Under the pieces are notes generated by a model. It worked only from the letters and a program-made list of their open reading frames with translations, was not told the DNA's origin and did not search any database. The translations under genes were made by a program, and so were the position numbers. DNA of 62,675 nucleotides, counting the filler, from Theionarchaea archaeon (lineage in GTDB: Archaea; Methanobacteriota_B; Thermococci; Methanofastidiosales; SZ-28-30): the NCBI GenBank assembly GCA_018992565.1. It is 7 parts of 7 records of this genome, joined end to end, with 100 filler letters (N's around TTAATTAATTAA, not from the genome) between each part and the next. Parts side by side here need not be neighbours in the genome. Positions count along the whole stretch, not along the records: positions 55,550 to 59,140 come from JACVGW010000143.1; 6 more parts are not named here. The stretch is one strand, 5' to 3'. This document shows, piece by piece, positions 964 through 57,758 of the stretch (the first letter of the stretch is position 1; each line of letters begins with the position of its first letter).

Positions 964-1719
964 ATGTGCCACATTACTATCAAGGGATTGAATGTCTCAT
1001 ACGGAAATCAACATGTTCTCAAGAACGTTAGCCTGGAGATTCCACACAACAAAATAACAGTTATCATTGGCCCTTCTGGATGCGGAAAAACTACCCTCTT
1101 GAAGAGCCTTAACCGACTGCTGGAACTGCAGGATGGAGTAAAGATATCTGGGTCTGTTTATATGGACGGTGAATCCGTGTACGATCCCAAGGTTGATGTT
1201 ACCGAATTGCGAAAGAAGATGGGGCTTCTCTCTCAGAGACCGTATCCTCTCCCCATGTCAGTCTATGATAATGTAGCCTATGGCCCTCGCATTCACGGCC
1301 AGAGGAAAAAGCAGATACTGAATGAAATTGTGGAAAAGAACCTGAAAGCTGCGGGACTGTGGGAAGAAGTCAAAGATAGGTTGAAGACTCCTGCTGCATC
1401 TTTGTCCATCGGACAGCAGCAGCGGCTGTGTCTGGCACGGTGCCTGGCAGTCTCCCCTGAAGTCATCCTGTGCGATGAACCCACCTCAGCTCTGGACCCC
1501 TTTTCTGCCCAGAAAATCGAGGAAACCCTCTCCCAATTGAAAACTGAATACTCCATTGTTGTAGTGACCCACAACTTGCGAAGGGCGCGAAGACTGGCAG
1601 ATTATGTGGGGTTCATTTTCCTTGGAGAATTAATTGAACACGGGGAGAAAAAAGACATTTTCGAGAATCCCAAAGACGAGAGAACCAGACGGTATATCTC
1701 TGGAGAAAGCTATCTGTAG
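964..1719 (+). CDS. pstB: Phosphate ABC transporter ATP-binding protein PstB
   Basis: Walker A GPSGCGKTT, signature LSIGQQQRLCLAR, DEPTSALDP; SD GGTGA upstream. Confidence 0.95.
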   Translation: MCHITIKGLNVSYGNQHVLKNVSLEIPHNKITVIIGPSGCGKTTLLKSLNRLLELQDGVKISGSVYMDGESVYDPKVDVTELRKKMGLLSQRPYPLPMSVYDNVAYGPRIHGQRKKQILNEIVEKNLKAAGLWEEVKDRLKTPAASLSIGQQQRLCLARCLAVSPEVILCDEPTSALDPFSAQKIEETLSQLKTEYSIVVVTHNLRRARRLADYVGFIFLGELIEHGEKKDIFENPKDERTRRYISGESYL

Positions 1720-1859
1720 ATAATTACCGGAAATCATGCAGGAAGCGAATTCTCATTCTGAAATCGGGTGAAGTGAAGCCAGAAAAGTCACGGAAAACTA
1801 TTTAAGGCAATTTGCGTGGAAAGTGGTAAACCTCAGTCTACTCTATGAGGAGGATTACT

Positions 1860-3797
1860 ATGGATAACAGAACACATACAATCATGGTACCCCCCCAGGT
1901 AAGAGCATTCATGAACCGGGGGAACGATTTCACGTCATTCTGGGAACATGCTGCTGTGGCAGCCCAAGATGAAGTTCATTGGTTCACGCCGTGGGATACA
2001 GTATTTGACTGGACTGGACCTACCTTTTCCTGGTATAAGGGTGGCACAACCAACATTTGTTACAACTGCGTGGATGTGAATGTGAAGAAAGGAAGGGCGG
2101 GGAGAGCTGCTTTCATCCATGAGAGTGGAGAAAAGAGTGAAACCCGTGTGGTCACGTACGGTCAACTTCTACAAATGGTCAGCCAGTATGCTGCATGTCT
2201 CCGGGGCATGGGTGTAAAAAAAGGTGACCCTGTTGCTATCTACATGCCCATGCGTATTGAATCTGTGGTCTCTATGCTGGCTTGTGCTCGCATAGGTGCT
2301 ATTCACGTGGTTATTTTTGCTGGATTCTCTGCCAAGGCAGTGGCAGACAGGATCATGATTTCTGATACAAAATACGTCTTGACCCAGGATGAAGGGTCCA
2401 GGAGAGGAACCCCCATTCCTTTGAAGCCCACAGTGGATGAGGCCCTGAGCAAGGTGTCTGGTCAGGTGAAGAAGGTCGTTGTTTTGCGCTCCAACCCAGA
2501 GGGCAGCTACACCATGAAGAAGGGAAGAGACATCTCATGGGAAGAATTTCTCACTCTTGGCCAAGATGGCATGGGCGATGCGGAACACATGGAGGCAAAT
2601 GAACCTCTCTTCATGCTACCTACTTCAGGGACCACCGCTCTTCCCAAGGTCACCGTTCAGAATCATGGAGGATACCAGATATATGTCTATTCCATGGGTA
2701 AATGGATCTACAAGATGAGGGAAAATGATGTCTGGTTCTGTACGTCAGATATTGGATGGATCGTGGGTCACAGCTATAATGTATACGGCCCATTACTTGC
2801 AGGATGTACCTCTGTGTTATATGAGGGAACCCCGGATTATCCCAGAAATGATATGTGGTGGGATGTGCTTGATAGAAACAGGGCAACTGCATGGTGGGTT
2901 TCACCCACTGGAGTCAGAGGATTGATGCGGTTGGGCAATGAACATGCTATGGCGCATGATATTTCCAGCCTGGAACGGGTCTTCTGTGCGGGCGAAGTGC
3001 TCAACCCCGCAGCCTGGAGATGGCTGCAGGAAGATATTTTCCACGGTGAAATCCCAGTCATTGACCACATGTGGCAGACTGAGACCTCAGGCCCCTTAAT
3101 TGCTAACCCCTATGGGCTTGGAATGTTACCGATAAAGTCAGGATCTGCTGGGCTCCCTGTCCCGGGTGTAACGGTAGACATTGTAGATGAGATGACAGGT
3201 GAATCACTTCCCCATGGGACCAAGGGAGTCCTGGTGGCTAGGAATCCATTTCCCGGATTGACCCCCACATTGTGGAAGAATGAGGAGCGATATCTGGAAG
3301 AGTACTGGGACAGGTACAACCAGAAGAAGGTGTACTACTCGGGCGATGCCGCATATATTGATGAGGATGGTTACATATGGTTTGTGGGACGGTCTGATGA
3401 GGTCATCAAGATTGCATCGCACCGGATTGGAACGATTGAAATCGAGAATGCTTTGATATCTCACCCTGCAGTAGTTGAAGTTGGAGTCAGTGGTGTTCCT
3501 GATGAACTGCGAGGAGAAGTGGCCTGTGCTTTTGTGGTGCTGAGAAAAGACATGAACGCTGGTGAAGACCTTAAAAAAGAACTCATCCAGCATGTTCGAA
3601 ATACCATGGGCCCCATTGTGGTGATAAAGGATATTGAGTTTGTCAATCAACTTCCCAAGACACGCAGTGGCAAGATTCTGCGGAGAGTCATGAAAGCATT
3701 ATGGGTTTCAAAGGATCTGGGTGACTTGTCCACTATAGAAGAAGAAACCTCTATCAAGGAAATTCAGGAAGCTGTAGAGAAAATGAAGCATCTCTAG
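1860..3797 (+). CDS. acs: Acetate/propionate--CoA ligase (AMP-forming acyl-CoA synthetase)
   Basis: Motifs TSGTTALPK, DIGWIVGHSY, WQTETSG and LPKTRSGKILRR. Start placed at ATG 1860 after SD GAGGAGG. Confidence 0.88.
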   Translation: MDNRTHTIMVPPQVRAFMNRGNDFTSFWEHAAVAAQDEVHWFTPWDTVFDWTGPTFSWYKGGTTNICYNCVDVNVKKGRAGRAAFIHESGEKSETRVVTYGQLLQMVSQYAACLRGMGVKKGDPVAIYMPMRIESVVSMLACARIGAIHVVIFAGFSAKAVADRIMISDTKYVLTQDEGSRRGTPIPLKPTVDEALSKVSGQVKKVVVLRSNPEGSYTMKKGRDISWEEFLTLGQDGMGDAEHMEANEPLFMLPTSGTTALPKVTVQNHGGYQIYVYSMGKWIYKMRENDVWFCTSDIGWIVGHSYNVYGPLLAGCTSVLYEGTPDYPRNDMWWDVLDRNRATAWWVSPTGVRGLMRLGNEHAMAHDISSLERVFCAGEVLNPAAWRWLQEDIFHGEIPVIDHMWQTETSGPLIANPYGLGMLPIKSGSAGLPVPGVTVDIVDEMTGESLPHGTKGVLVARNPFPGLTPTLWKNEERYLEEYWDRYNQKKVYYSGDAAYIDEDGYIWFVGRSDEVIKIASHRIGTIEIENALISHPAVVEVGVSGVPDELRGEVACAFVVLRKDMNAGEDLKKELIQHVRNTMGPIVVIKDIEFVNQLPKTRSGKILRRVMKALWVSKDLGDLSTIEEETSIKEIQEAVEKMKHL

Positions 3798-53666: not shown

Positions 53667-54569
53667 ATGAAGAAAATTCTGGTCTATTTGAGTAATGAGA
53701 AACAGCCCAGCCTCTTTGACCTTATTGTGGCCTATGATTCTGATGTGGATGTAGTTCTGCCCTTTGGAAATATTACGCTAGAGGATATTACCAGTATGGT
53801 TCATGGGTGCATCTTCACCAGAAGACCCAAGAAACTGGTGAATACTGCGATTCTTTTCGGTGGCAATGATTCGGATCTGGCAGATGACATGATGAAGAAG
53901 GCAAAGAAGACCTTTTTTGGAGATTTTAAGGTATCTGTCATGGCAGACCCTGATGGAAATACCACCACGTCTGCTGCTACCGTGGCCAAGATCAAAGATG
54001 TCCTGGGTGACATGAAGGGAATGAAAGCTGTGGTCCTGGCAGGGACAGGTGCTGTGGGAGAGAGGGTATCAGTGCTGCTCCACAGGGAGGGAGCTTCAGT
54101 GATATTAACATCGAGGAAACTGGAAAAAGCAGAAGCTGTGTGCAAGAAGATAGAAGAGAAGTATGGCAGGGATATTACGCCATTACAGGTGTCTACAGAT
54201 GAGGAGTGCATGAAAGCTCTAGAAGGCGCTCAGATTGCAATTGGCACGGGGAAAGCAGGTATACAATTGATGAAGAAGGATATCTGGACGAAAAATCCTA
54301 CTATCAGGGTTCTGGCGGATGTGAATGCATATCCCCCGGCAGGAATCGAAGGAGTAGAAGTGGCAGATGATGCGAAGGAAGTGGACGGAAAGGTTTTGTT
54401 TGGTGCTGTTGCTATTGGTGATTTGAAGACTAAAGGGATGCGTGATGTCATTCGAAAGATGTACGAAGAGAAAGGACAGTACATGGACCTGGAGAGAATC
54501 TACGATATTACCTGGGAATCACTGGAAGTAAAAAAAGAGCGGTATGAGAAGGGAGACACAATAATGTAG
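53667..54569 (+). CDS. NAD(P)-dependent methylene-H4MPT/H4F dehydrogenase (MtdA/MtdB family)
   Basis: PSLFDLIVAYD, GCIFTR, MADPDGNTTTSAA, AGTGAVG and DVNAYPPAGIEG. Confidence 0.82.
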   Translation: MKKILVYLSNEKQPSLFDLIVAYDSDVDVVLPFGNITLEDITSMVHGCIFTRRPKKLVNTAILFGGNDSDLADDMMKKAKKTFFGDFKVSVMADPDGNTTTSAATVAKIKDVLGDMKGMKAVVLAGTGAVGERVSVLLHREGASVILTSRKLEKAEAVCKKIEEKYGRDITPLQVSTDEECMKALEGAQIAIGTGKAGIQLMKKDIWTKNPTIRVLADVNAYPPAGIEGVEVADDAKEVDGKVLFGAVAIGDLKTKGMRDVIRKMYEEKGQYMDLERIYDITWESLEVKKERYEKGDTIM

Positions 54570-54611: not shown

Positions 54612-55449
54612 CTAGTAGTGTTTGGCAAAGTACACCGGATATTTTGCATCTTTCCCGCAGTAGACGCAGGTACCTTGGACTTCCTCATTGAAGGGAATAC
54701 AGCATGAAGATGCTCCTGTCTCATCTTTAATGATGGCTTCACATTCCTCAGAGCCACACCAGTTGGTCCTAACCAGTTTCTTGTCTTCGATGCAGGCTTT
54801 AAGATCTTCGTAGTTGTTTGCTGTGACCGTATTCTCTTCCAGGAATCTCTTCGCTTTTCTGAACAAGTCTTCCTGGATTGTGACCAATGTGTTCTGGACC
54901 TCTTCTTCAACTGTGTTCACGGGGATTGCCCGTTTCTCACCTGTATCCCGCCTCACCAGGACCACCTGGTCCTTTTTCACATCTCTGGGGCCTATCTCTA
55001 TCCTCACAGGGACTCCCTTGACCTCCCAGTGGTTGAATTTCCATCCTGCCGTGTATTCTTCTCTGTCATCCAGAACGACAACAACCGTTCCAAGCTTCTC
55101 TTTGACTTTCAATGCCATCTCCTGGATAGCCTCTCTACTCTCCTGGAAGATAATAGGAATAATCACTACATGAATGGGAGCTACCCTGGGAGGCAAGACC
55201 AGCCCTTTGTCATCTGAATGCACCATGACAGCCACTGCCACGGACCGCGTGGACAATCCCCAAGAGGTTTGCCACACGTATTTTTTCTGTTCATCCTTAT
55301 CAATAAAGGTGATATCAAATGCTTTTGAGAAGTGCTGTCCCAGATTGTGGGTGGTAGCACTCTGGGTGGCGCGGTTATCGGGCATCAAAGATTCCAATGT
55401 CAAGGTGTACAAAGCCCCCGGGAATTTCTCACTCTCTGTTTTAGTTCCC
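54612..55449 (-). CDS. proS: Proline--tRNA ligase (archaeal/eukaryotic type), 5' truncated
   Basis: EKFPGA, HNLGQHFSKAF, QTSWGLSTR, HSDDKGLVLPP and C-terminal FAKHY. Confidence 0.96.
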
Positions 55450-55549
55450 NNNNNNNNNNNNNNNNNNNNNNNNNNNNNNNNNNNNNNNNNNNNTTAATTA
55501 ATTAANNNNNNNNNNNNNNNNNNNNNNNNNNNNNNNNNNNNNNNNNNNN

Positions 55550-56921
55550 ATTCATGGGAATTGTTGTGAGCGTGCTGAGCCTCTCTGGCTTCTTCCATGA
55601 GGAGATACCAGTATAATTCTCGATGGACACCGCACTTCGGTGATACCTTTTTCAACTCTCCTGAATCGTGGAACCTATCCACATGACACCCTCCCCCGCA
55701 TATGTATTTGAGTTCACACTCCCCGCATTCAGGTATATCCAGTACTGAAAGCGACCTCAATTCAGAGAACACTTCGCCGGTCTCCCAGATATCCTTAAGC
55801 GTCTGTTCACGGATAGTACCTCCACAAAACCTATCATCATGGAGTCCTGCACAGGGATAGATGTTCCCGTTTGGTGAAACACTCATCATGGAAATGCCTG
55901 CTCCACAGAATTCTCTCCTCTGCATTTTCTCAACTTCATTGCGAAGGGTGTCTTCTATTGTTGTGACGATGCCTATCTTTGAAATGTCTTTCATTCTCTT
56001 GAAGGCTTCAATCAGATCGTTGTCTTCCAGTGCCACCTGTGACTCATTCTGTTTTGCCCTCCCTTTCATCTGCAGAATAGGAAAGTGAAGACTTGAGATT
56101 CCCAGGCTCTTTACAAGATGTGCCATCTCCTCCATTTCATGGACATTCTGACTCATGAGTGTCATACCTACTGTTACAGGTGCCCCCACCCTCACCAGGG
56201 TTTTCAATCCCTCAATGACTTTCCTGTATGATCCCTTTCCCCTGATGAAGTCCTGGGTTTCTTCTCGGGCTCCATCCAGACTTACCTGGACTGCAACATT
56301 CAACTCTTTGAGAACGCGAGCAATCTCATCTGTTATCTGTGTACCATTTGTGATGAGCTGGATTCCTTCCATGCAGTCATATGCATAGGCCAGGATGGCG
56401 AGAATATCTTTTCTCAGCAGAGGTTCTCCTCCTGAGACAGTCATATGTCTTGCTCCCAGCTCCTGGGCTTCTGAAATTACGTGACATATCTCTTTTTCGG
56501 TGAGTTCATTTTCCAGTGGCGGCCCTGACTCTTGATGGCAGTGAATACACCTCAAATTACATGCATTTGTGACATTGAGCCAAAAATTGTGCAGAGGGAC
56601 AGCCTTCTTGTCCGGCGTGCTGGGTGGTACCCATTCTTCTTCCCGTAGGACAGTCTTCTCCCGCAGTTCATTAACAAATGCTAGAACACTGTCCACGGAT
56701 TCATGGTACGGCTCATTGTACTTTTCGCACAGTGCCTGTATGATATGTTGCAGAGGAGTCTTGCCATCACAGAGCGTGATAATGTCCTTTCCTATGGTAT
56801 TGACAATGACCCAGTTTGGGGTCTCCGGGTCAAGCAGAAGATAGAGATCGGGTGAACCTTCTCGGGAAATCACAGTTCGGGGAGCATGGGGGGCAGAATC
56901 TAGAGTGAATGATGTGCTCAT
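55550..56921 (-). CDS. PqqD/RRE-radical SAM-SPASM peptide maturase (stop not reached before the gap)
   Basis: N-terminal RRE-like segment (NTIGKDIITLCDGKTPLQHIIQALCEKY...FVNELRE), CNLRCIHC, SGGEPLLR, and SPASM CGAG...GNIYPC...CGEC...ICGGGC...C. Confidence 0.92.
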
Positions 56922-56942
56922 CTGATCACCTGTTAAAGAAAG

Positions 56943-56974
56943 CCGAAAAACTTATAAATCTATCTTAGGATAGA
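56943..56974 (+). promoter_or_regulatory. BRE-TATA promoter with adjacent inverted repeat
   Basis: CCGAAAAA-CTTATAAA followed by TCTATC-TTAG-GATAGA. Confidence 0.6.
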
Positions 56975-56990
56975 CAAGTGAGGTGACACC

Positions 56991-57134
56991 ATGGGACTGA
57001 ACCCTAAACTTCTCAAGGCTTCGTTTGGCGTGACTCCAGAGGACGAATTTGATCCTGGTGGAGGGTGCGGTTATTGCACTGTGCAGTACTACGCATGTTG
57101 GCCCAAGTACTGCAACAATGTGTATTTGTATTGA
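56991..57134 (+). CDS. Cys/Tyr-rich RiPP precursor peptide (47 aa, missing from the ORF track)
   Basis: SD GAGGTGA 4 nt before ATG; product MGLNPKLLKASFGVTPEDEFDPGGGCGYCTVQYYACWPKYCNNVYLY; divergent from the rSAM/SPASM gene. Confidence 0.8.
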   Translation: MGLNPKLLKASFGVTPEDEFDPGGGCGYCTVQYYACWPKYCNNVYLY

Positions 57135-57182
57135 GGTATCTGTTACATAATCGAGTAGTGACTGTACTTCAACAAAGAGAAT

Positions 57183-57219
57183 ACTAGATTTGTCCCCCCT
57201 CAAGGGGGGCCCATTTAGT
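57183..57219 (+). terminator. Stem-loop downstream of the precursor gene
   Basis: CCCCCC-TCAA-GGGGGG, flanked by ACTAGAT/ATTTAGT. Confidence 0.5.
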
Positions 57220-57290
57220 GTTGCAAAGGATGGAACCCTGAAAGTCACAAGATATTTAAGGGTTATCCTGTATGTTGATTTGGTGATATC

Positions 57291-57758
57291 ACGATTCACG
57301 GTGTCAAGATAAAGGATTTAAGAGTAATTCCCGATGAAAGAGGATGGCTCATGGAGATTTTGAGGTGTGATGACCCGCTTTTTGAGAAATTTGGGCAGGT
57401 ATATGTGACTGTGGCCTATCCTGGTGTGGTTAAAGCATGGCACTGTCACAAGAAACAGACAGACAATTTCACCTGCATACAAGGAATGATGAAAGTGGCT
57501 TTATATGATGGGAGAGACGACTCACCCACATTTAAGGAGATAATGGAGCTCTTTGTTGGGGATAGGAACCCTGTGTTGATTAAAGTCCCACCCTTCGTGT
57601 ACCATGGGTTCAAAGCGCTTGGTGATGAAGCTGCGTTCTTTTTGAGTGTGCCGACACTGCCCTATGACTATGAGAACCCAGATGAGTACAGGCTGCCCCC
57701 CGATACGGAAGAAATTCCCTATGACTGGGTCCTGACCCCGGGAAAGAAGCATGGGTGA
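57291..57758 (+). CDS. rfbC: dTDP-4-dehydrorhamnose 3,5-epimerase family protein
   Basis: IHGVKIKDLRVIPDERGWLME, VKAWHCH and PPFVYHGF. The homologous N-terminus starts at ACG 57291, upstream of the track's ATG. Confidence 0.85.
   Translation, partial: TIHGVKIKDLRVIPDERGWLMEILRCDDPLFEKFGQVYVTVAYPGVVKAWHCHKKQTDNFTCIQGMMKVALYDGRDDSPTFKEIMELFVGDRNPVLIKVPPFVYHGFKALGDEAAFFLSVPTLPYDYENPDEYRLPPDTEEIPYDWVLTPGKKHG

Follow-up and report, generated by a model that had tools for sequence, protein, structure and literature searches.

The window analyzed here is a stretch of 62,675 nucleotides from a metagenome-assembled genome (MAG) of a Theionarchaea archaeon (GenBank assembly GCA_018992565.1), in which contigs are chained by N runs and a ttaattaattaa linker. 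One N run with this linker fills positions 55451–55549, which confirms the contig border at 55550 given in the initial annotation. The short contig that starts there and continues to around 59138 carries a gene for an enzyme with radical S-adenosylmethionine (radical SAM) and SPASM domains, a 47-codon open reading frame (ORF), two dTDP-sugar genes, and the start of a membrane-protein gene. We focus on the first two of these, which diverge from a gap of 69 bp (56922–56990) and which probably form a two-gene cassette for a peptide made by ribosomes and modified after translation (RiPP): The 47-amino acid (aa) peptide would be the precursor, and the enzyme, hereafter called the maturase and also endowed with a RiPP recognition element (RRE), would introduce thioether cross-links into it. 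The main features of this pair are the following:

55551–56921, minus strand: maturase gene, 457 codons, with RRE, radical SAM, and SPASM domains (Pfam); runs into the contig end
56652–56870, minus strand: RRE (PqqD-like) domain, residues 18–90, three strands followed by three helices (Pfam PF05402 and AlphaFold2 model)
56538–56561, minus strand: CX3CX2C radical SAM cluster motif (C121, C125, C128), invariant in 28 of 28 homologues
55632–55907, minus strand: SPASM domain with C339, C357, C399, C402, C408, C412, and C430 (Pfam PF13186), all seven invariant in 28 of 28 homologues
56991–57134, plus strand: candidate precursor peptide gene, 47 codons and stop (ORF reading)
56991–57032, plus strand: predicted leader recognition segment, residues 1–14, starting with M-x-L-x-P-x-L-L (alignments A2 and A3, complex model)
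57066–57131, plus strand: putative core, residues 26–47, including C-W-P-K-Y-C (from composition, with a tentative boundary)

The stop codon of the maturase gene lies at or past the contig end, and because homologues are 449–460 aa long, the near full-length protein can be regarded as essentially complete. Pfam recognizes PqqD (PF05402) at residues 27–90 (41.5 bits against a cut-off of 23.4, E = 1.7e-10), Radical_SAM at residues 116–270 (112 bits), and SPASM (PF13186) at residues 339–402 (36.6 bits), in agreement with the architecture originally proposed for the divergent neighbor of the ORF. An eighth maturase cysteine, C366, is present in 18 of the 28 homologues only. In the AlphaFold2 model (mean predicted local distance difference test score, pLDDT, of 91.6), the RRE is formed by strands at residues 18–23, 26–30, and 37–40 and helices at residues 42–50, 57–68, and 72–88. 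The closest solved protein by sequence is SkfB (E = 1.5e-21), with PqqE in second place and CteB also among the matches (E = 4.7e-18 over residues 40–424, at an identity to the solved CteB chain of only about 20%). By fold, a Foldseek search returned SkfB, CteB (ranks 2–4), SuiB, and TigE, and then anSME and PqqE.

The maturase scored below every NCBIfam cut-off, with StsB as the best model (178.6 bits versus 625), followed by NirJ2 (172.7 versus 500), MftC (168 versus 265), WgkB (165.4), AhbD (162.4 versus 500), PapB (135.4 versus 340), PqqE (123 versus 381), AlbA (100.8 versus 850), and SkfB (97 versus 300). Neither the SCIFF maturase model nor TIGR04463, the family of the archaeal enzyme CrpC, is among the 25 best of its 107 NCBIfam matches, the score of the latter lying outside those shown. 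Judged by these profile scores, the maturase falls outside the named curated families scored here. The initial annotation had asked whether the enzyme might instead group with SPASM enzymes that do not act on peptides. It is below the AhbD and NirJ2 cut-offs, the matches to these two models span residues 116–430 and thus exclude the RRE that is fused to this enzyme, and the best full-length fold matches are the RiPP maturases CteB, SuiB, and TigE.

The 47-aa peptide (MGLNPKLLKASFGVTPEDEFDPGGGCGYCTVQYYACWPKYCNNVYLY) has the composition that had been described for it, with no cysteine in residues 1–25 and with 4 Cys, 6 Tyr, and 1 Trp in residues 26–47. That this ORF belongs to the maturase is suggested above all by its recurrence. 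In protein databases, 24 clusters share 47–57% identity with the maturase, and their Pfam domains are either the full shared set of four or three of the four; one of these clusters is named after Theionarchaea archaeon DG-70-1, and the database name of the identical protein is that of a Theionarchaea MAG. A scan of metagenomes yielded six loci (L081–L086) with a maturase of 41–57% identity, and a small adjacent ORF with the same leader motif was found at four of them (L082, L083, L084, and L085, of which three are independent). The similar small ORF that the initial annotation expected beside maturase homologues is thus present at four of these six loci. The two without such an ORF in their remaining sequence (L081 and L086) are on contigs that end inside the maturase gene and lack one flank. 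L083 and L084 are near-duplicates with maturases 57% and 54% identical to that of the window, and their divergent upstream ORF of 39 codons (MGLNPKILAAPTSGGLPNLHCPFWICYKYCMLFCYPFYW) begins with MGLNPKIL, the same as the window peptide in 7 of 8 residues. At L082 (maturase identity 41%) and L085 (44%), the small ORF (MTLKPTLLAAAKEKQSVMAGACIETVCWAYCSTHGGDPGCCWMWGHFAWV and MSLHPNLFACAETPGDGLGGCISFTTVWSCDTYCPITYACPYICEVHVPCWV, respectively) lies downstream on the same strand, so that gene order varies between a divergent arrangement with the peptide gene upstream and a same-strand arrangement. The small ORFs of all four loci encode 4–7 Cys, and Cys and aromatic residues abound in the C-terminal half of each peptide.

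Aligned with each other (alignments A2 and A3), the peptides share the leader motif M-x-L-x-P-x-[LI]-[LF], in which M1, L3, and P5 are invariant. Alignment A3 also shows invariant core cysteines at C26, C29, and C36, and all 4 related peptide types contain the motif C-[WYD]-x-Y-C. All related peptides have tails rich in Trp, Tyr, and Phe (7 of the 22 core residues of the window peptide are aromatic), and the cores otherwise vary strongly in length and sequence. In a six-frame search of the window and 160 loci (about 1.5 Mb in total), a regular expression for the leader motif matched 22 times, including one match containing a stop, and at least 4 Cys were encoded in just five cases, namely, the window peptide and those of L082, L083, L084, and L085 (0–2 Cys in the other 17). 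When 1.84 billion proteins were screened with a profile built from the peptides, five matched at E ≤ 0.001: the L082-type peptide with a variant of it (P0123 and P0124), the window peptide, a further member on which the profile had not been trained (P0126, E = 1.1e-5), and P0125, a 1009-aa repeat protein with 15 stretches that we treated as spurious. P0124 is 70 aa long compared to 50 aa for P0123 and carries an unrelated 20-residue tail by read-through, which suggests a lost stop codon or a frameshift in one population.

As the first analysis of the sequence had implied in not recognizing the precursor, the peptides do not fall into known families: An NCBIfam scan with E-values up to 1 returned no family for any of 5 peptides, and a Pfam scan of the same 5 gave a single match at chance level (E = 0.22). 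Protein Atlas scores are all below 0.9, with clusters of bacteriocin, sactipeptide, and lantibiotic precursors at 0.76–0.79 as a mere lead. What would define the peptides as a family is the N-terminal octamer, the C-[WYD]-x-Y-C motif with richness in Cys and aromatics, the translation signals described below, and, most importantly, the position next to orthologous enzymes.

No peptide of the window type was found beside more distant enzymes of 29–36% identity (L001, L002, L027, L087–L089, and L161), and a scan of genome contigs gave a best maturase match of 35% among the matches listed. Within the 132 genomes of one class (the same set at phylum level), a match was found in a single genome (G001, 36% identity), and the other 131 have no maturase match at E ≤ 1e-60. 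G001, the approximately 2.5-Mb MAG of a “Thermococci archaeon” that contains locus L062, encodes 25 maturase matches at E ≤ 1e-20, many of them with an N-terminal RRE region and several of them in clusters (no fewer than 5 on contig C10 and 4 on contig C45). The flanks of 14 further radical SAM/SPASM paralogues in this genome contained no convincing Cys-rich peptide preceded by a Shine–Dalgarno (SD) sequence; four ORFs with 3 Cys passed our filter, and none of them has the leader motif.

We also compared the gene neighborhoods. No third gene is conserved across the flanks of the window, L081, L082, L084, and L085, where neighbors differ everywhere: Aldo-keto reductase, GNAT, DUF6653, PD40-repeat, and PsbP-like proteins are encoded at L084; a Crp-type regulator is encoded at L085; and L082 has an unassigned 447-aa ORF that is unrelated to the ORF downstream in L081. 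Protease or transporter genes, which according to the initial annotation would, if any, lie beyond the contig end, are not conserved in the flanks of the relatives either, and the unit is therefore probably a bare cassette of two genes rather than a larger cluster that was cut off. At L081, a second gene for an RRE, radical SAM, and SPASM protein (1431–2660, plus strand) directly follows the maturase gene of 55% identity; it encodes a 409-aa paralogue without part of the radical SAM barrel and is followed by an ORF of 446–450 aa with a signal peptide and a weak Peptidase_MA_2 match under the cut-off.

The variability of the peptide cores bears on the idea that the peptide is the precursor of a redox cofactor of the pyrroloquinoline quinone (PQQ) or mycofactocin type and that the enzyme modifies a C-terminal Tyr motif. 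In an NCBIfam scan of the 28 homologues, of which E-values were recorded, MftC was matched by 27 and gave the strongest match of all (E = 1.5e-62), PqqE comes second among solved structures by sequence, and the tails are rich in aromatics, with a V-Y in that of the window peptide. The precursor MftA ends in V-Y. Cofactor-precursor cores are conserved, however, and those found here differ strongly in length and sequence, which makes this explanation very unlikely. Also against it are the score of the maturase, far from the MftC cut-off, and the visible flanks, which contain no accessory genes of the PQQ or mycofactocin pathways.

How peptide and maturase might interact was explored by structure prediction. 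The model of their complex scored 0.75, compared to 0.25 for the best of 3 controls; 58 of 80 solved complexes attain this mark, as do 2 of 110 mismatched pairs, a rough calibration as our own alignments were used. Agreement between runs covered at least 52% of contacts; the pLDDT of the peptide was at least 46, leaving its fold uncertain. The confident interface is formed by peptide residues 1–14 and RRE residues 34–47 and 61–91, from which we infer that the leader binds the RRE of the maturase, and a further contact sets peptide C29 against C339 and C412 of the SPASM domain. This outcome may reflect likeness to known structures, since RRE–leader complexes of CteB and SuiB have already been solved.

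Taken together, the pair shows the CX3CX2C motif, a SPASM domain whose seven Cys would serve two auxiliary clusters, an RRE, and an adjacent small precursor with a conserved leader and a variable core that recurs beside the enzyme, the features of the general kind of RRE-dependent radical SAM systems. The peptides resemble each other in the leader motif and the pattern of Cys and aromatics only. The archaeal RiPP pathway of precursor and maturase suggested at the outset is thus supported by recurrence, domains, and fold matches, and the macrocycle and its cross-link chemistry keep the conditional standing they had there. In the mechanism that we propose, leader residues 1–14 (M-G-L-N-P-K-L-L and onward) would dock on the enzyme's own RRE by adding a strand to it, and the core rich in Cys, Tyr, and Trp (residues 26–47) would be threaded into the active site. 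A 5′-deoxyadenosyl radical would then abstract a hydrogen from an acceptor residue, and the sulfur of a cysteine, probably held at auxiliary cluster I, would close a thioether ring (a sactionine or ranthionine) up to four times and with a loss of 2 Da per link. A seven-Cys SPASM domain leaves auxiliary cluster I open for a substrate cysteine, as in CteB. Thioethers appear to be the most likely type of cross-link because cysteines are the main conserved feature of the core, because SkfB and CteB, the solved enzymes closest to the maturase, form thioethers, and because the seven-Cys SPASM domain would leave this site open. By analogy with small two-gene radical SAM peptide cassettes, the product is likely to be a signal or an antagonistic peptide.

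The composition of the core makes a second type of chemistry a serious rival, if overall an unlikely one: The same pair could form C–C, C–O, or C–N cross-links on aromatic residues (cyclophane type, as for StrB/SuiB, WgkB, the three-residue cyclophane enzymes, or DarE/DynA), with the cysteines serving for disulfides or metal binding. So aromatic a core and the tails shared by all relatives would suit such links, and WgkB (165 bits) and SuiB are among the top NCBIfam and fold matches, respectively. WgkB, DynA, and similar families match far under their cut-offs, however, and the best-conserved feature of the core in alignment A3 is not aromatic residues but C26, C29, and C36. Thioether-forming SkfB and CteB rank among the top matches by both sequence and fold, and the predicted position of C29 by C339 and C412 would also favor thioethers, although this placement may be a memory of CteB.

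The following signals surround the two genes:

56980–56986, plus strand: SD-like GAGGTGA, 4 nt ahead of the peptide ATG (sequence)
56925–56931, minus strand: SD-like AGGTGAT, 3 nt ahead of the maturase ATG (sequence)
56944–56959, no strand assigned: purine-rich CGAAAAA resembling a B recognition element (BRE) with near-palindromic TATA-like CTTATAAAT (sequence)
57180–57222, plus strand: 3′ hairpin with a G/C inner stem at 57192–57210 (folding test)

The sequence GGTGA, 4 nt, and ATG is common to all four peptide genes (window, L084, L082, and L085), and GAAAA[AG]CTTATAA precedes the peptide genes of the window and L084 with equal spacing (−45 to −33 relative to the ATG). The BRE- and TATA-like pair and the 3′ stem-loop of the earlier description are both there. 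The TATA-like element divides the 69 bp between the genes nearly in half, with each start codon about 35 nt away, and, going by BRE/TATA consensus sequences, could be a shared or bidirectional archaeal promoter; a central element of this kind would give both mRNAs very short 5′ leaders. The hairpin region of 111 nt folds at −37 kcal/mol (z = −2.98, equalled by 1 of 200 shuffles) and may possibly act as a transcript end or stabilizer. As for the SD sequence, which had been presented as having a spacing typical of this genome, the element itself stands 4 nt before the ATG, and its typicality found no support in a crude count, with an SD-like word before the first start codon in just 5 of the 41 ORFs of at least 200 aa (starts uncurated). 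By a crude filter of our own making, the window contains 597 ATG-started candidates of 30–80 aa, of which 18 have GGTGA no more than 16 nt upstream, and the 47-aa ORF alone combines this word with a TATA-like hexamer 21–50 nt upstream.

Near-identical DNA is present in 20 sequencing runs of 7 studies covering sediment, mangrove, estuary, and soil metagenomes, with no RNA run listed among them; a contig of one run (X13) extends 1796 nt past the end of the window contig (55551). In three other metagenomes, the maturase gene varies at 24 sites, of which 19 are synonymous, which shows purifying selection on this gene. The peptide ORF is free of variants in 3 of 4 runs, the three that cover it (run X11 covers small parts of the stretch only), and its flanks contain one variant upstream and several downstream, one of them in the hairpin loop. 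In run X20, 5 differences in 223 flanking nucleotides compare to none in the 144 nucleotides of the ORF (about p = 0.08 by our own arithmetic). In four other metagenomes, a recurrent 3′ haplotype combines C>T at 57173, the loss of 1 nt at 57185, and A>G at both 57203 (within the hairpin loop) and 57226 with an unaltered peptide ORF.

Several points weigh against the reading as a thioether-forming cassette. The genomic context was read at just 3 independent related loci, and the leader motif was defined after the sequences had been seen. The four peptide types have no significant whole-sequence likeness, the window peptide, as sole query of a word-based protein search, matched only itself, and leave-one-clade-out profiles run over 40,063 ORFs never recovered the left-out member (L082 with 12.1 bits and L085 with 11.0 bits, both at rank 8, and the window and L084 outside the top 8). 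The variant-free 144-nt ORF is not significant by itself and amounts to a weak hint. On the side of the enzyme, the cut-offs of named sactipeptide and ranthipeptide maturases (StsB, PapB, AlbA, and SkfB) are not reached, and its chemistry cannot be read from similarity because the core scores the non-peptide models NirJ2 and AhbD on par with StsB, MftC, and WgkB. Asp, Glu, and Thr are the typical acceptors in characterized ranthipeptides, and the core of the window peptide is poor in these and rich in aromatics, which would also fit C–C or cyclophane chemistry.

Some of the same points could mean that the 47-aa ORF is an untranslated chance ORF in an intergenic or promoter region and that the substrate of the enzyme is encoded elsewhere. 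We infer rather than observe its translation, the likeness of whole peptides among the relatives falls short of significance, and small ORFs are as abundant in the window as the 597 candidates indicate. This explanation is nonetheless very unlikely because leader and signals recur: Seven of eight N-terminal residues are identical beside an enzyme of 54–57% identity, Cys-rich ORFs with the leader motif accompany enzymes of 41–44% identity despite changed gene order and neighbors, the strong SD sequence has identical spacing in all four peptide genes, and the complex model beats its controls.

In its layout, the proposed two-gene cassette comes closest to SCIFF/CteB of Clostridia (structures 5WGG and 5WHY), of the RRE-dependent radical SAM RiPP kind. 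In both, the enzyme joins an N-terminal RRE to a radical SAM core and a SPASM domain with seven Cys; the precursor, about 45 aa long, has a conserved leader and is rich in Cys in its C-terminal half; and the two genes appear to form a bare pair without protease or transporter. The window peptide differs from SCIFF in having four Cys and many aromatics instead of six Cys and in its archaeal host, and database models set the two apart as well, with no NCBIfam family and no more than chance Pfam matches for the peptides and the SCIFF maturase model outside the 25 best matches. Sactipeptide maturases such as SkfB, AlbA, and StsB make Cys-to-Cα thioethers, in which the acceptor is often an aromatic or small residue. 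Of the solved proteins, SkfB matches best by sequence and fold, and StsB is the best NCBIfam model, but scores are far below the cut-offs, the precursors are unrelated, and immunity or transport genes of these systems are not seen nearby. With MftC and PqqE, the maturase shares the radical SAM/SPASM core and the small Tyr-containing peptide substrate; it differs in that its RRE is fused and not a separate protein, the cores are hypervariable, and the visible flanks hold no accessory pathway genes (including MftA/B/D/E/F).

Two archaeal systems allow a closer comparison. CrpC of Methanococcus voltae, as described in the available portion of its report, is an RRE, radical SAM, and SPASM enzyme of family TIGR04463 with seven SPASM cysteines that installs ranthionine links on the neighboring Cys-rich CrpA, a protein with a leader-like N-terminus (PMC13692751). 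CrpA is a 28.8-kDa repeat protein as opposed to the 47-aa peptide here, and the same portion states that products below 100 aa were excluded from that study (PMC13692751). In Thermococcus, of a related euryarchaeal lineage, homologues of subtilosin A with AlbA/AlbC form an archaeal radical SAM thioether peptide cluster according to the accessible part of a preprint (bioRxiv 10.64898/2026.07.27.741052). Like our cassette, this is a radical SAM peptide system, but it has a recognizable sboA/albA homologue and a transporter, while the window maturase scores 100.8 against the AlbA cut-off of 850 and the peptide is unrelated. Within the searchable literature, these two, as far as their accessible parts show, were the only cases of archaeal radical SAM peptide or protein cross-linking that we found, and nothing was found on the window peptide or its enzyme clade (the supplements of PMC13692751, which lie outside this search, could list related archaeal enzymes).

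The remaining genes of the window contig include a dTDP-sugar epimerase-like and a dTDP-glucose 4,6-dehydratase-like gene (Pfam). The epimerase-like gene (57279–57758, plus strand) has no ATG, GTG, or TTG ahead of position 57351. When it is read from 57279, directly after a TGA at 57276–57278, the start of the PF00908 match moves from profile position 39 to 3 and the score rises from 42.8 to 55.5 bits, which points either to a non-canonical start codon or to an assembly error of 1 nt. On the neighboring contig, a methylene-tetrahydromethanopterin dehydrogenase-like gene with an Mpt_N domain (53667–54569, plus strand) is followed by a prolyl-tRNA synthetase gene (54612–55412, minus strand) that is truncated by the contig end.

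Radical SAM modified peptides are well studied in bacteria, and the pair described here would add a compact and directly testable archaeal example from an uncultured sediment lineage, composed of a 47-aa peptide with a defined leader motif and a 457-aa enzyme, whose precursor is missed by standard gene calling and family libraries. In a bolder and quite improbable scenario, the C-[WY]-x(1–2)-Y-C core may mark a type of cross-link new for radical SAM enzymes, with a compact, knotted peptide as the product that could be an archaeal signal or weapon. Possibilities for such a link include Cys sulfur joined to an aromatic side chain or one enzyme that forms thioether as well as cyclophane rings, and the two-gene cassette may then be common in Theionarchaea of anoxic sediments. 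If the core is cross-linked in an unusual way, the maturase would represent new enzyme chemistry; if not, the pair would constitute one more family of the sactipeptide- or ranthipeptide-like kind.

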